From Gammaproteobacteria bacterium (GTDB taxonomy: Bacteria > Pseudomonadota > Gammaproteobacteria > Eutrophobiales > Eutrophobiaceae), in NCBI GenBank assembly GCA_965601665.1, contig OZ271833.1, positions 2,146,607 through 2,210,606 on the forward strand: DNA of 64,000 bases, read 5' to 3'. A program made the translations under genes and the position numbers. A model generated the notes under the pieces. It was given only the letters and a program-made list of their open reading frames with translations. It ran no database searches and was not told the origin of the DNA. Positions 5,284-17,026 of the stretch are shown here, one piece after another; position 1 is the stretch's first letter; every line of letters begins with the position of its first letter.

Positions 5284-5751
5284 TTACATCTGGGATTGCA
5301 GATAATTTTCCATGCCAATTTTCTCAATCAAGCCAAGTTGCTGTTCCAGCCAGTAAGCATGGTCTTCTTCTGTGTCCTTAAGTAAAACCTCAAGTAGCTC
5401 CCTGGTCGGGTAGTCTCGTTCAGCTTCACAGATAACGATAGCCTCTTTGAGATTTGCTACCACATCAATCTCCAGCCTGAGATCGCTGGACAACATCTCA
5501 GTCACATCTTTACCTATCTGCAGCCCTTCACGCCTGGTCATATCAGGTGTGCCTTCCAGAAACAGGATGCGCTTGATGATAGTGTCAGCATGCTCAGTTT
5601 CATGCTGCATTTCATGGCCAATATGCTCATAGAGCTTGGTTAGTCCCCAGTCTTCATACATGCGTGAATGAATAAAGTACTGGTCAATTGCCGCCAGTTC
5701 ACCGGCCAGCAATTTATTTAACTGTTTAATTACTTTGTTACTACCTTTCAT
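5284..5751 (-). CDS. bfr: Bacterioferritin subunit (paralog lacking the Met52 haem ligand)
   Basis: [24 protein letters not shown] with ferroxidase ligands conserved (E18, E51, H54, E94, E127, H130 by alignment to E. coli Bfr). The position aligned to Met52 is Thr (HETEHAD). Confidence 0.85.
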
Positions 5752-13044: not shown

Positions 13045-14508
13045 ATGTCGTTTTTTGTTCGGATTATCCTTGCAGTCCTGATGACAACCTTATCAGCATG
13101 CGCTGTGAATCCTGTTACCGGGAAACAGGACCTCGCCCTGATGTCCGAACAGGATGAAATTGCCCTCGGTAAAAAAACACATCAGCAGGTATTACAGCAA
13201 TACCGGGTTTACGATAATCCGGCATTACAAAGCTATGTGCGCCTGATCGGTAACAAGCTGGCTGACTCAAGCCATCGTCGTCAACTTGAGTACCACTTCA
13301 CTGTTCTGGACAGCAAGGAGGTCAACGCGTTTGCGTTGCCCGGGGGCTACATCTACATCACACGAGGGCTGATGGCCTATCTCAACTCGGAGGCAGAACT
13401 TGCAGCCGTACTAGGCCATGAGATAGGACATGTGACTGCCCGGCACTCGGTCAGGCAGTACAGCGCACAGCAATTGACCGGAATTAGCGTACTGCTTGGA
13501 TCATTATTTATTCCGGGTATGGAACAGGCCGGCAGTCAACTAATGCAGACTTTTGGTGCTGCCATCCTGCGCGGGTATGGCCGGGAACACGAACTGGAGG
13601 CAGATAAACTGGGTGCCGAATACCTGGCGCGCACAAATTATGATCCGGAAGCGATGCTGGATGTAATCGGCGTGCTCAAGGACCAGGAAGTATTCGAGAG
13701 GGATAAGGCCAGGGACCAGGGCAGGGAGCCAAATGTTTACCACGGTGTCTTTGCCACACACCCTGACAATGATACGCGACTTCAGCAAGTAGTCAGTTCG
13801 GCGAAATCGTTAGCTGGTGAGGGTAACGTAAACTACTTAGGTCACGAGGAATACATGTCATACATCGACAACCTCGTATTTGGCGATAGCCCAAAGGAAG
13901 GCATTCAGCGTGGATCTGATTTTTTTCACCTGGACCTGGACTTCGCCATGACCTTCCCAACCGGCTGGAATGTCACCAATAAGCCAGATCGCCTGGTTAT
14001 GGTTGAACCCGGAGAAAAGGCGGTCCTCCAGCTGTTTGCCGAAAAAATTGAGCGCAGCCTGACACCAAGGCAGTTCATGATCGAGCGACTCGGCCTTACA
14101 AATCTTGATAAAGAGTCCGCGTTGCTGATCAATGGCCTCGATGCCCATACTGGCATATCGGTTGTAAAAACCGGCGCAGGGCCAAGACCCGCCCGTTTCA
14201 CCGTTGTTTATCATGGCAATTATGCATTTGTATTTGCAGGCATGACGCCCTATGCGGGGCTAATGGCAACGTTCGACCCGATGTTTCGGCAAACTGCGGG
14301 CAGCTTTCATCAAATGACCGCTGCTGAACGAGACAAGGCACAACCGATGACTCTTCAGGTGATACAGGCCGATGCCGACAGCAGTTACGAGTCGCTTTCC
14401 AGTCAGTCAGTACTTGAAACCGATTCAGAAGCGCTGCTTAGACTATTAAATGGCCACTATCCTGATGGCGAGCCGGACGCAGGGGAATTGATAAAGATCG
14501 TTCGCTGA
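13045..14508 (+). CDS. M48 family zinc metalloprotease, lipoprotein (LoiP/YcaL-like)
   Basis: Lipobox LSAC, HEIGH motif (AVLGHEIGHVTARHS), NAFALPGGYIYITRGL, and a C-terminal domain of about 200 aa. Confidence 0.8.
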   Translation: MSFFVRIILAVLMTTLSACAVNPVTGKQDLALMSEQDEIALGKKTHQQVLQQYRVYDNPALQSYVRLIGNKLADSSHRRQLEYHFTVLDSKEVNAFALPGGYIYITRGLMAYLNSEAELAAVLGHEIGHVTARHSVRQYSAQQLTGISVLLGSLFIPGMEQAGSQLMQTFGAAILRGYGREHELEADKLGAEYLARTNYDPEAMLDVIGVLKDQEVFERDKARDQGREPNVYHGVFATHPDNDTRLQQVVSSAKSLAGEGNVNYLGHEEYMSYIDNLVFGDSPKEGIQRGSDFFHLDLDFAMTFPTGWNVTNKPDRLVMVEPGEKAVLQLFAEKIERSLTPRQFMIERLGLTNLDKESALLINGLDAHTGISVVKTGAGPRPARFTVVYHGNYAFVFAGMTPYAGLMATFDPMFRQTAGSFHQMTAAERDKAQPMTLQVIQADADSSYESLSSQSVLETDSEALLRLLNGHYPDGEPDAGELIKIVR

Positions 14509-14543
14509 TAGTTACCGTCGCAACCGGTCACAGCGTGCAGCGG

Positions 14544-14576
14544 TTATCCACATTTTCTGTGGATAACTATGTGGAA
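14544..14576. promoter_or_regulatory. DnaA-box cluster: perfect TTATCCACA and inverted perfect TGTGGATAA 5 bp apart, plus degenerate TATGTGGAA
   Basis: Read directly from the sequence. Both 9-mers equal the DnaA box consensus. Located in the 400-bp gap between convergent genes. Confidence 0.5.
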
Positions 14577-14781
14577 GGCTTGCAGACAAACAACTCTTCA
14601 GCCACTGTTTGTTGCCGCTATATTAAATCGGTTAATATTTAACCGGCCCCGCTATACATTTATAATCAACTAGTTACACGTATCAGCAAGGCGTTCAGCC
14701 AAGATCCTGGACAATCAATAAGCGTAAACCCAGATTGGCCCAGCATGTGCATAACCTTCAGCAGACTGTTGACAAGTTAAT

Positions 14782-14809
14782 CAGTTTCTGGAACTTAAAG
14801 ACAACCCAG
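14782..14809 (+). promoter_or_regulatory. Sigma-E/AlgU-type promoter GGAACTT-N16-TCTAA
   Basis: GGAACTT at 14782-14788, a 16-nt spacer, and TCTAA at 14805-14809. This is a textbook ECF sigma-E/AlgU consensus. Confidence 0.55.
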
Positions 14810-14815
14810 GGTTCT

Positions 14816-14933
14816 AAATAATTGCACTAGCATTCCCGCAACCTCCCTTAGCGGGAATACCCCGGTCTCCCCAGCCGGGTTAAATTTGCCCCGGCGTAAG
14901 CCTAACCCTATAGCTCCCCGGGGCCTTTTTTTT
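14816..14933 (+). ncRNA. Candidate sigma-E-dependent sRNA of about 118 nt, at the Spot42/ErsA position relative to engB
   Basis: Begins about 7 nt after the -10 element. 8-bp hairpin ATTCCCGC/GCGGGAAT, 5-bp hairpin CCCGG/CCGGG, and a terminal stem GCCCCGG/CCGGGGC followed by U8. Plus-strand orientation convergent with engB matches E. coli spf and Pseudomonas ersA. Confidence 0.45.
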
Positions 14934-15543
14934 CTTTTCCAAATAACCATCCTGCCAACTGCTGCCGCGCGTCATCAACCCCGGTGCCTTTCAGCGCGGA
15001 AAAAAGCTGGCAGGTCTCACCCGGACCAATCAGCTCATTTTTCACCTGTAGCATTGCATTCCTGGCTGCACTTTTAGATAACTTGTCAGCCTTGTTGAGC
15101 AGGATATGCATGGGAATACCGCATGTGCGTGCATAATCCAGCATCTGCCGGTCAAAATCGCCCAGTGGATGACGAATATCCATAATAAGGAAAATCCCCT
15201 GTAGAGACTGCCGCTCGCGTAAGTAATGTTCAAGCAGCCTGGCCCATGTCTTTTGCATTGCCTCACTGACCCTGGCAAAACCATAACCAGGAAGATCAAC
15301 CAGGTAGATACCGGTGTCATATTCAAAATAATTCAGTTCGCGCGTACGCCCCGGTAATTTACTGGTTCGGGCCAGGGATTTACGCTGGGTAACGCGATTA
15401 AGGACGCTGGATTTGCCCACATTTGAGCGGCCTGCAAACGCAACTTCAGTACCTTTATCTGGCGGCAGCTGTTTACTGGCAGCAACCCCGAGTTTGAACT
15501 CGAAACGACTGTACCAGTTATCAGGTAGCTCTATGTCAGGCAT
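14908..15543 (-). CDS. engB: Ribosome biogenesis GTP-binding protein EngB/YihA
   Basis: G1 GRSNVGKSS, G3 DLPGYG, G4 NKADK. 211 aa. Confidence 0.9.
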   Translation of the reverse strand: MPDIELPDNWYSRFEFKLGVAASKQLPPDKGTEVAFAGRSNVGKSSVLNRVTQRKSLARTSKLPGRTRELNYFEYDTGIYLVDLPGYGFARVSEAMQKTWARLLEHYLRERQSLQGIFLIMDIRHPLGDFDRQMLDYARTCGIPMHILLNKADKLSKSAARNAMLQVKNELIGPGETCQLFSALKGTGVDDARQQLAGWLFGKEKKGPGEL

Positions 15544-15720: not shown

Positions 15721-16329
15721 ATGAATATCAGAAAAATAGCTACTTTAATTTTGCTTTCGGGTTTCGCAATCAGTGCAACTGCTGACAGTGGTGATCCGGC
15801 GAATGGTAAAACCCTTTCTGCCACCTGTGCTGCATGTCACGGCACTGACGGAAACAGCCCCAGCGGCGCCTGGCCAAAACTGGCAGGACAGCATTCTGTC
15901 TACATTATCAAGCAATTGCAGGACTACAAGTCTGGTGCTCGAGAAAATGCCATTATGGCGGGAATGGCGGCTACGCTCAGTGAGCAGGATATGCGCGATC
16001 TGGGCGCTTACTTCTCCAGCCAAAAAATCAAGTATGGTGTGGCCGACCCGCAATATGTAGAACTCGGTGAGCAAATATATCGTGCCGGCATCAGGGAATC
16101 CGGGGTGCCGGCGTGCATGGCCTGCCACGGACCTGCAGGCAAGGGTAACCCTGCTGCCAATTATCCTGCACTTGCAGGACAACATGCCGAGTACACCGAA
16201 ATACAGATGCAGGCCTGGAAGACCGAAACCCGTGCAAATGACAGCAATGCCGTGATGCGCACAGTAGCCGGACCAATGACTAACGAGCAAATCAAGGCGG
16301 TTTCAAACTATCTGCAGGGCTTGAGATAA
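15721..16329 (+). CDS. cc4: Dihaem cytochrome c4
   Basis: Signal peptide, two CxxCH motifs (CAACH, CMACH), and about 200 aa. Adjacent to dsbA and engB as in Pseudomonas. Confidence 0.85.
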   Translation: MNIRKIATLILLSGFAISATADSGDPANGKTLSATCAACHGTDGNSPSGAWPKLAGQHSVYIIKQLQDYKSGARENAIMAGMAATLSEQDMRDLGAYFSSQKIKYGVADPQYVELGEQIYRAGIRESGVPACMACHGPAGKGNPAANYPALAGQHAEYTEIQMQAWKTETRANDSNAVMRTVAGPMTNEQIKAVSNYLQGLR

Positions 16330-16405
16330 ATCGAGCTTGCAGGGCGTATTTTCGGATTTTCGCCTGTCTATAGAAATAGCATTGATTAAACTCATAAGGA
16401 TAACC

Positions 16406-17026
16406 ATGAAACGATTTATTACCCTGCTGGGCGTCAGCCTGCTGCTATTCAGCTTACAATCACAGGCAAAAGACGGCTACGTTTCCATTTCTCCTGCGCA
16501 GCCAACACAAACCGGAAACAAGATAGAAGTGGTTGAAGTGTTCTGGTACGGATGTCCACATTGCTACGACTTCGAACCCTACATTGATAAGTGGTTGGAA
16601 ACCAAACCTGATGATGTCGAATTCCGTCGCATGCCGGGGATATTTCGTAAAAGCTGGATACCACATGCCAAGGCGTACTACACGGCAGAAAAGCTGGGCG
16701 TACTGGATAAAATACACGCGCCACTTTTTACGGCTTTACATAAGCAAAGAAAACGAATCTACGATGACGAAAGCCTTGAAGAATTCTTCGAAGATCAGGG
16801 TATCGATGATGATGAATTTCGAAAAATTTATGATTCAGAAGAAGTTGATACCAAGGTTAAACAGGCTTTTGTCATGGGCCAGCGTTATAAGGTGACCGGC
16901 ACTCCTGCTATCGTCGTCAATGGCAAGTACTTGGTAAGCGGCAGTTCTGCAGGCAGTTTTGAAAATGCATTAAAGGTCATTGATGATCTGGTCGCTAAAG
17001 AGAGAGCGCTGGCCGCAAAAGAGTAG
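16406..17026 (+). CDS. dsbA: Thiol:disulfide interchange protein DsbA
   Basis: Start trimmed to MKRFITLLGVSLLLFS signal. Active site WYGCPHCYDFEP. Confidence 0.9.
   Translation: MKRFITLLGVSLLLFSLQSQAKDGYVSISPAQPTQTGNKIEVVEVFWYGCPHCYDFEPYIDKWLETKPDDVEFRRMPGIFRKSWIPHAKAYYTAEKLGVLDKIHAPLFTALHKQRKRIYDDESLEEFFEDQGIDDDEFRKIYDSEEVDTKVKQAFVMGQRYKVTGTPAIVVNGKYLVSGSSAGSFENALKVIDDLVAKERALAAKE

Follow-up and report, generated by a model that had tools for sequence, protein, structure and literature searches.

A conserved structured RNA convergent with engB in a gammaproteobacterial genome: a divergent anti-hemB relative with a sigma-E-type promoter motif

The window analysed here, a 64,000-nucleotide (nt) stretch of the gammaproteobacterial contig OZ271833.1, carries a conserved structured RNA (14790-14933, + strand) whose three hairpins are supported by covariation. 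The element lies between a protease gene and engB. The upstream gene (13045-14508, + strand; Pfam Peptidase_M48, E = 3e-39) is on the same strand as the small RNA (sRNA) and encodes an M48 metalloprotease with a lipoprotein-like N-terminus, which is BepA-like but scores below the equivalog cut-off. On the other side, engB (yihA/ysxC; 14908-15543, − strand) runs convergently with the sRNA and encodes a ribosome-biogenesis GTPase that scores 226 bits against TIGR03598 (cut-off 124) and is 51% identical to E. coli YihA. Cytochrome c4 and dsbA genes (15721-17026, + strand; Pfam Cytochrom_C and DSBA), synteny markers common to Burkholderia, Legionella and Pseudomonas, follow in divergent orientation to engB, and a gene reading as a diguanylate cyclase lies just downstream of them.

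A sigma-E-type promoter can be read from the window sequence upstream of the hairpins. Its −35 box GGAACTT (14790-14796, + strand) is an exact match to the E. coli sigma-E consensus, and its −10 box TCTAA (14813-14817, + strand) lies 16 nt further on with one mismatch to TCAAA. This conforms to the sigma-E regulon pattern of GGAACTT and TCAAA boxes with a strongly preferred 16-nt spacer and a discriminator of 5-6 nt (PMC1312014). From the discriminator rule we infer a transcription start near 14824, which gives a predicted primary transcript of ~110 nt (14824-14933, + strand) with its 3′ end in a U-tract.

The minimum free energy (MFE) fold of the RNA begins with stem-loop SL1 (14832-14858, + strand; AUUCCCGC / loop AACCUCCCUUA / GCGGGAAU), which has an 8-bp stem and a loop at 14840-14850. 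SL2 (14861-14879, + strand), separated from SL1 by 2 nt in the same fold, pairs CCCGGU with GCCGGG around the loop CUCCCCA (14867-14873). An A/U-rich linker, UUAAAUUU (14880-14887, + strand; family consensus uaaaauUu), sits just 5′ of the terminator hairpin SL3 (14888-14924, + strand), in which GCCCCGG (14888-14894) pairs with CCGGGGC (14918-14924) across a 23-nt loop. The U8 tract that completes the intrinsic terminator (14926-14933, + strand) is read directly from the sequence. The window RNA has an MFE of −39.1 kcal/mol compared with −29.8 ± 3.1 kcal/mol for dinucleotide shuffles (z = −3.0), and 2 of 200 shuffles fold as stably. An initial annotation of the window had proposed the GGAACTT-N16-TCTAA promoter, a three-hairpin transcript ending in a GC stem and U8, and a position like that of Spot 42 and ErsA; all three hold at this site, and both spf of E. 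coli and ersA of P. aeruginosa occupy the same slot beside engB.

A search with EngB, limited to one genome per species, yielded 43 gammaproteobacterial engB loci. The closest relative, L001 (OZ245888.1, an unclassified gammaproteobacterial metagenome-assembled genome), has the same RNA, an EngB that is 80% identical and likewise an M48 gene upstream. A covariance model built from the window and L001 (R1) finds 18 copies, and a further model rebuilt from the R1 matches with gammaproteobacterial sequences only (R2) finds 19 in the 43 loci, one of them outside the training set. The matches in the window span 14829-14933 and score 131.9 bits (R1) and 97.4 bits (R2); the covariance-model search detected no second copy of the RNA in the window. 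All but one of the gammaproteobacterial copies are convergent with engB. No family member was found in the engB loci of Neisseria, Acinetobacter and Legionella.

Some of the engB loci were taken from PLSDB records. Several PLSDB "plasmids", NZ_CP119142.1, NZ_CP104448.1 and NZ_AP026896.1 among them, are mislabelled whole chromosomes of 2-5 Mb, belonging to Neisseria gonorrhoeae, Acinetobacter baumannii, Aeromonas caviae, E. coli and Proteus, and it was as chromosome records that they served as a source of loci.

Both the promoter and the hairpins are conserved in the engB-flanking regions, and all three helices show compensatory change. Across 18 gammaproteobacterial homologues, 93.5% of the alignment cells in stems pair and both partners have changed in 17 of the 21 pairs (7 of 8 in SL1, 6 of 6 in SL2 and 4 of 7 in the terminator); the terminator stem pairs in 100% of its cells. 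In plain MAFFT alignments the arms of SL1 and SL2 are out of register, and for this reason RNAalifold found no helix there but the terminator. Covariance-model-guided alignments were used instead, and since these are biased toward the structure of the model we relied on slid-partner and shuffle controls. None of 500 shuffles reaches any of the observed measures, and slid partners pair at 31-53%. An independent sample came from a metagenome scan with the motif of the SL1 loop and 3′ arm alone (TCTCCTCCCTGRGYGGG), which returned 80 loci that were not chosen by protein content. R2 matches 62 of these 80, with 95% of stem cells paired and 254 compensatory cells.

The relatives fold independently into the SL1-SL2-terminator layout, most of them with an extra 5′ hairpin (SL0) that is absent in the window, and the U-tail is kept in all family members. 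Conservation is concentrated in the apical loops, at 1.17 bits per column in the SL1 loop and 1.31 in the SL2 loop (family consensus ctCCCCA) compared with ~0.65 in the SL1 stem. The consensus of the SL3 loop contains UCCCCU, and most relatives have UCCCC(C).

The promoter motif is conserved with the RNA. In L001 the −35 and −10 boxes are identical to those of the window, and only a few spacer positions are kept. We searched the expected 65-nt interval in the 77 members with enough upstream sequence and compared it with 1540 control windows from the same loci. The pattern GAACnn-N15-17-TCnn[A/T] is present in 63 of the 77 members and 1.1% of the controls, and a looser form in 70 of the 77 and 3.1%. 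The spacer is 16 nt long in 53 of these 70 members and 17 nt in the other 17. The family consensus reads GGAACTT-N16-TCTTA, with TC(T/C/A)(T/n)A as the −10 box. By this measure most family members carry a conserved sigma-E-type promoter motif.

The constant neighbour of the RNA family is engB, not hemB or polA, in agreement with the initial annotation, which had argued that the sRNA travels with engB. In 51 of the 55 informative metagenome loci engB is immediately downstream and convergent. The upstream gene varies. Among 80 members it is a divergent hemB in 45, a co-directional polA in 11, the M48 gene in 2 (the window and L001) and another gene in 9; the remaining 13 have too little upstream sequence, so that hemB accounts for 45 of 67 readable loci. 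The M48 protease thus holds the slot that polA or hemB takes in other lineages.

The same annotation had noted that the terminator overlaps the last codons of engB and had proposed that sRNA termination is thereby coupled to the engB 3′ end. The overlap is there. The engB stop codon (14908-14910) lies inside the terminator loop, the last 26 nt of the gene overlap the 3′ end of the sRNA, and the EngB terminus E-K-K-G-P-G-E-L corresponds to the U-tract and the terminator 3′ arm read in reverse. The coupling does not stand as a family property, because the overlap varies among members: the window, L001, L002, L010 and L017 have 23-29 nt of it, L004, L006 and L007 have 5 nt, and the remaining loci have gaps of 5 to ~250 nt between the sRNA and engB. 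The EngB tails at the overlaps (KKGPGEL, KKSPGEL, EKDGPGL, KKSPGVQS and QKMPRRA) lie beyond the conserved GTPase domain. As they read the terminator backwards, their likeness stems from constraint on the RNA and not from protein function, and the 26-nt overlap itself reads as a local by-product of the terminator.

Two copies of the sRNA are flipped, being co-directional with engB and still adjacent to it, at L013 3653-3762 (+ strand; Methylonatrum kenyense) and in L067. L013 keeps a promoter of the form GGAACCC-N16-TCTCA; no such motif was found in L067.

Linkage of this kind could reflect an action in cis, in which convergent transcription or the 3′ antisense overlap tunes the EngB level under envelope stress or the hairpin is the 3′ end or terminator structure of the engB mRNA. 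We regard this as quite unlikely. The RNA and engB adjoin not only in the metagenome loci but also in 19 of the 43 gammaproteobacterial and 4 of 4 Pseudomonas loci, the association survives the change of upstream gene, and the window and four of its relatives have the codon overlap. However, neither the overlap nor, in L013 and L067, the convergent orientation is conserved, and it is the apical loops rather than the overlap region that are kept best. Past the hairpin, the engB strand reads AAAUUUAA rather than a U-tract, and in P. aeruginosa an ersA deletion was without polar effects on its neighbours (PMC8575079).

Rfam gave no match in the window at gathering thresholds. At relaxed thresholds, the best match is to anti-hemB (RF02837), which covers the full length of the model (1-81) at 14833-14932 with 34.2 bits (E = 2.6e-6) and so falls short of the 49.5 bits set for gathering. 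Four homologues, L003, L004, L006 and L007, pass that score at 49.8-50.3 bits, and others reach 31-47 bits. When 20 of the metagenome loci matched by R2 were checked with Rfam, all 20 passed the RF02837 gathering score, at 60-82 bits. Together with the match to the locus of the Burkholderia member ncS04 described below, these scores make the link a firm one. On sequence comparison, we assign the window RNA to anti-hemB as a divergent gammaproteobacterial member, its membership being transitive via intermediate sequences. What is new here is a sub-threshold member of this family whose host class and upstream neighbour are both new to it. In genome annotation, the gathering threshold of Rfam leaves this gammaproteobacterial branch undetected.

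The anti-hemB motif reportedly goes back to Weinberg et al. in 2007. Its traits, a 5′ hairpin with a CUCCUCCCUG-type loop, a terminator and a U-tract, are present in the window (AACCUCCCUUA and U8). The RF02837 member of B. cenocepacia J2315, ncS04, has been mapped as a transcript of 105 nt and reported to bind Hfq, and its gene order is hemB ← ncS04 → ← engB followed by cytochrome c4 (PMC5688073); BCAL0266 is the cytochrome c4 gene adjoining engB in Burkholderia. ncS04 and the window RNA share an SL1 loop of the CCUCCC type on a CCCGC/GCGGG stem (CCCGCU-UCUCCUCCCUG-AGCGGG in ncS04), a terminator hairpin followed by a U-tract, a length of ~105 nt and a convergent engB with cytochrome c4 beyond it. 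Of the Burkholderia context, engB and cytochrome c4 are thus shared, and hemB is replaced by the M48 protease. In contrast, SL2 of the window carries a C-rich loop on a CCCGG stem and SL2 of Burkholderia is an A/U-rich hairpin, the window RNA lacks SL0, its promoter is sigma-E-like where that of the Burkholderia type is a sigma-70-like extended −10, and its host is a gammaproteobacterium rather than a betaproteobacterium.

A 2026 preprint reads anti-hemB as a cis or antisense regulator of hemB and heme synthesis (bioRxiv 10.64898/2026.09.01.748597). In contrast to that reading, hemB and the RNA are transcribed divergently in our loci, and the constant neighbour is engB. For the window a cis-regulatory hemB leader was ruled out, since hemB is missing here and both the promoter and the U-tract belong to the opposite strand. 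Described as a candidate RNA in 2007, anti-hemB has had no assigned function since, and the comparison points away from heme regulation.

We consider it likely that the window holds an independent gene for a trans-acting sRNA of ~110 nt, which would be induced by sigma-E and would mask ribosome-binding sites with its C-rich loops. Under envelope stress, RNA polymerase with an RpoE/AlgU-type sigma factor would start near 14824 and terminate at the GC hairpin and U8. The A/U-rich linker, terminator hairpin and U-tail would recruit Hfq; the linker and U-tail are a candidate Hfq-binding module by analogy with ncS04, which binds this protein (PMC5688073). The loops of SL1 (AACCUCCCUUA) and SL2 (CUCCCCA) would pair with G-rich Shine-Dalgarno regions and block the initiation of translation. 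These two C-rich loops are the presumed seeds because they are more conserved than the stems and because there is a demonstrated precedent in sX13, whose C-rich loops repress mRNAs that carry a G-rich motif where the ribosome binds (PMC3771888). The CU-rich motifs of Burkholderia double-hairpin sRNAs are likewise predicted to cover ribosome-binding sites, and for the CU-rich Bordetella sRNA S17 a mechanism at the ribosome-binding site has been shown by reporter assay. We take the SL1 loop AACCUCCCUUA to resemble the anti-Shine-Dalgarno tail of 16S rRNA. A constant engB, a sigma-E-type promoter in most members and anti-Shine-Dalgarno-like loops together suggest a testable role for the family, that of a sigma-E-induced translational repressor.

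By analogy with other sigma-E-dependent sRNAs, the probable targets would be envelope or transport proteins. In MicA and RybB of Enterobacteria, the GGAACTT / TCAAA promoters are close to the consensus and conserved between species; these sRNAs were assigned to sigma-E by the same promoter logic as is used here and repress the mRNAs of envelope proteins under envelope stress (PMC1804206). They differ from the present family in that their sequences, structures and loci are unrelated and their seeds are 5′-terminal, not placed in hairpin loops.

Several observations weigh against a sigma-E-induced, trans-acting sRNA. Taken alone, the window promoter motif is within chance: by chance, a 64-kb sequence should hold 0.16 copies of GGAACTT-N15-17-TCNAA, and at least one copy occurs in 14 of 100 shuffles (~14%). 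The significance of the promoter therefore comes from its conservation across genomes rather than from the motif in a single window, and it is the comparison between genomes that carries the case. When the 64-kb window was searched with a looser sigma-E promoter pattern, no second site emerged, and tblastn with an E. coli RpoE query found no rpoE match in it. The C-rich motif of the SL3 loop is partly degenerate in the window (AACCCUAUAG, with CCC only), and the anti-hemB score of the window falls short of the gathering score. Since sX13 works without Hfq, the Hfq step is uncertain. We know of no target for any family member. RNAduplex, run with the whole sRNA against 436 candidate start regions in the window, returned long unrealistic duplexes and no signal. 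Finally, the metagenome loci closest to ncS04 carry a sigma-70-like extended −10 (TGGTATATCAT) and not the sigma-E motif, and expression of ncS04 was unchanged under all conditions tested (PMC5688073), which such a promoter would fit.

The Burkholderia-like anti-hemB loci L047 (~5585-5629) and L074 (~1063-1107) are 81% identical to ncS04 and have a conserved TTTCGAGACAATGGTATATCAT upstream. This sigma-70-like extended −10 suggests a promoter swap, which would explain constitutive expression of ncS04. Calibration of the predicted window start by the mapped 5′ end of ncS04 was ruled out, as the Burkholderia-like promoter differs.

A more improbable alternative retains the structure and gives it another task, in which the repeated C-rich loops bind or titrate a protein or another RNA with no occlusion of ribosome-binding sites. 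Up to three similar C-rich loops on stable stems do resemble the layout of a sponge RNA, and the lack of a known target mRNA fits this picture as well. Nonetheless, in the literature consulted the characterised RNAs with this layout, sX13 and the Burkholderia and Bordetella CU-rich sRNAs, pair with G-rich mRNA sites, ErsA also pairs with mRNAs, and no protein is known to recognise CCUCCC loops.

The Spot 42/ErsA-like position raises the question of how the window RNA relates to those sRNAs. The initial annotation had pointed to the Rfam models of both. Neither Spot_42 nor Pseudomon-1/ErsA matches 14480-15000 even at E ≤ 10, and the best family is anti-hemB, which had not been named. The likeness to ErsA reappears at the level of the family profile, where R2 scores 22.5-38.7 bits (E = 1.6e-7 to 8.5e-4) at the position of ErsA in all 4 Pseudomonas loci, in each of them as the only significant match. 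Two parts align, SL2 with its CCGG stem and C-rich loop and the terminator hairpin around the CCCCUCCCC loop. Rfam Pseudomon-1 (RF01719, gathering score 50 bits) in turn scores 30 bits on L004 and L006. The likeness does not extend to the model of the window and L001, for which the match is marginal, with R1 hitting one ErsA locus at 16.7 bits. Homology to ErsA is thus plausible at the level of the family profile and is not demonstrated for the window by itself.

The genomic context is partly shared with ErsA. In the P. aeruginosa locus, which we retrieved via DsbA (L169), the order is polA, ersA, the convergent engB, cytochromes c5 and c4, dsbA and a DGCcoil-GGDEF gene, so that engB, cytochrome c4, dsbA and a diguanylate-cyclase/GGDEF gene follow one another as in the window. 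Both RNAs are convergent with engB and have a sigma-E/AlgU-type promoter (GAACTT-N17-TCAGA in L169, GGAACTT-N16-TCTAA in the window), and the ErsA terminator, AACCCCG...CGGGGUU with the CCCCUCCCC loop, is of the same kind. In contrast, polA is upstream in P. aeruginosa and the M48 gene in the window. Domain II of ErsA, a 34-nt U-rich single-stranded seed between its SL1 and SL2 (PMC8575079), stands where the family has the SL1 hairpin and is without counterpart in the window RNA.

In Pseudomonas oryzihabitans (L170 2549-2663), ErsA adjoins engB with a semialdehyde dehydrogenase gene upstream instead of polA, and the locus is without cytochrome c4. ErsA thus also travels with engB.

Spot 42 (spf, RF00021, gathering score 80 bits) of Enterobacterales, Vibrionales and Aeromonadales shares the arrangement polA → spf → ← yihA/engB, which is found in Aeromonas likewise, a similar size and a terminator starting with GCCCC. 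R2 matches only its terminator, at 13-19 bits, and as a positive control the Aeromonas locus L168 scores 109 bits with Spot_42. The spf promoter is of the sigma-70 type, no sigma-E motif lies upstream of spf in L164, and its seeds are single-stranded rather than C-rich loops. Transcription of spf is reported to be repressed by cyclic AMP (cAMP)-CRP, according to a paper cited in PMC3771888. Membership of the window RNA in the Spot 42 family was ruled out on the Rfam result and the terminator-only R2 matches.

Strict orthology with ErsA or Spot 42, including their mode of action by a single-stranded U-rich seed on their known targets (algC, oprD, amrZ and anr for ErsA, sugar-metabolism genes for Spot 42), is very improbable. 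Position, orientation and, for ErsA, the promoter class and the R2 and Pseudomon-1 scores favour such an identity. However, the 2 nt between SL1 and SL2 leave no room for a 34-nt U-rich domain, and the silence of both Rfam models on the window, the marginal R1 score on ErsA, the terminator-only matches to Spot 42 and the cAMP-CRP repression reported for spf all speak against it. That there is no RNA gene here, only an engB terminator with chance hairpins and a chance promoter-like motif, has a negligible probability, for although GC-rich hairpins are common in intergenic DNA and the motif alone is within chance, all three helices covary, the promoter boxes keep a fixed distance in 63-70 of 77 loci, the U-tract is on the sRNA strand and not the engB strand, and the Burkholderia homologue is a mapped transcript.

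A third family, sX13 (RF02232, gathering score 50 bits) of Xanthomonadaceae, resembles the trans-acting sRNA proposed here in its design. It is ~115 nt long with three stem-loops carrying C-rich apical loops, and it is encoded at the polA locus, as are 11 members of the present family. Loops of its 4C/5C type are matched in the window by SL1 (CCUCCC) and SL2 (CUCCCCA), and the SL3 loop has CCC only. The sX13 model gives weak full-length matches to the window (19.9 bits, E = 0.16), L004 (25.5 bits) and L013 (28.6 bits); these are far below the gathering score, and their E-values of 0.004-0.5 are not convincing. In addition, sX13 is described as linked to polA rather than engB and is Hfq-independent.

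Anti-hemB, ErsA, sX13 and Spot 42 are separate Rfam families with no clan, and in the literature searched we found no paper that joins ErsA/Pseudomon-1 with sX13 or anti-hemB/ncS04, or sX13 with anti-hemB/ncS04. We give an even chance to the core proposal that anti-hemB/ncS04, the window RNA with its gammaproteobacterial relatives, and ErsA are orthologous. Extending this orthology to sX13 is tentative, with the balance tilted against it, and its extension to Spot 42 is unlikely. On such a history, one ancient sRNA gene under an envelope-stress sigma factor would have been kept beside engB since before the split of beta- and gammaproteobacteria. Its seed would have been remodelled from a C-rich hairpin loop to a U-rich single strand in ErsA, and its promoter would have been swapped in some lineages, for a sigma-70-like one in Burkholderia and a cAMP-CRP-repressed one in enterics. 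A tie to ErsA, a virulence-relevant sRNA of P. aeruginosa, would show that locus, promoter class and 3′ scaffold can be kept while the seed is rebuilt. Overall, the anti-hemB family is engB-linked, present in Gammaproteobacteria and, judged by its promoter motif, mostly sigma-E-driven, with a plausible kinship to ErsA, a view that we did not find in the literature searched.

The intergenic region between the M48 gene and the sRNA promoter contains further conserved sequence. A 47-nt block, GTTATCCACATTTTCTGTGGATAACTATGTGGAAGGCTTGCAGACAA (14541-14587), is 100% identical in L001 while its flanks have diverged. No perfect DnaA box (TTATCCACA) occurs in the 64-kb window outside this block, which has two of them, head-to-head at 14544-14552 (+ strand) and 14558-14566 (− strand), together with a near-box, TATGTGGAA. 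The block may be a DnaA-binding regulatory site. Other intergenic islands kept in L001 lie at 14625-14647, 14744-14754 and 14767-14781. Among the conserved islands, one contains the palindrome GGTTAA-N-TTAACC within TTTAAAT.GGTTAA..TTTTAACCG, another, CATGTGCATAA, includes a DnaA box with one mismatch (TTATGCACA), and a third, CTGTTGACAA.TTA, sits just 5′ of the sigma-E −35 box. Judged by their conservation in L001, these islands may be binding sites of additional regulators of the sRNA.

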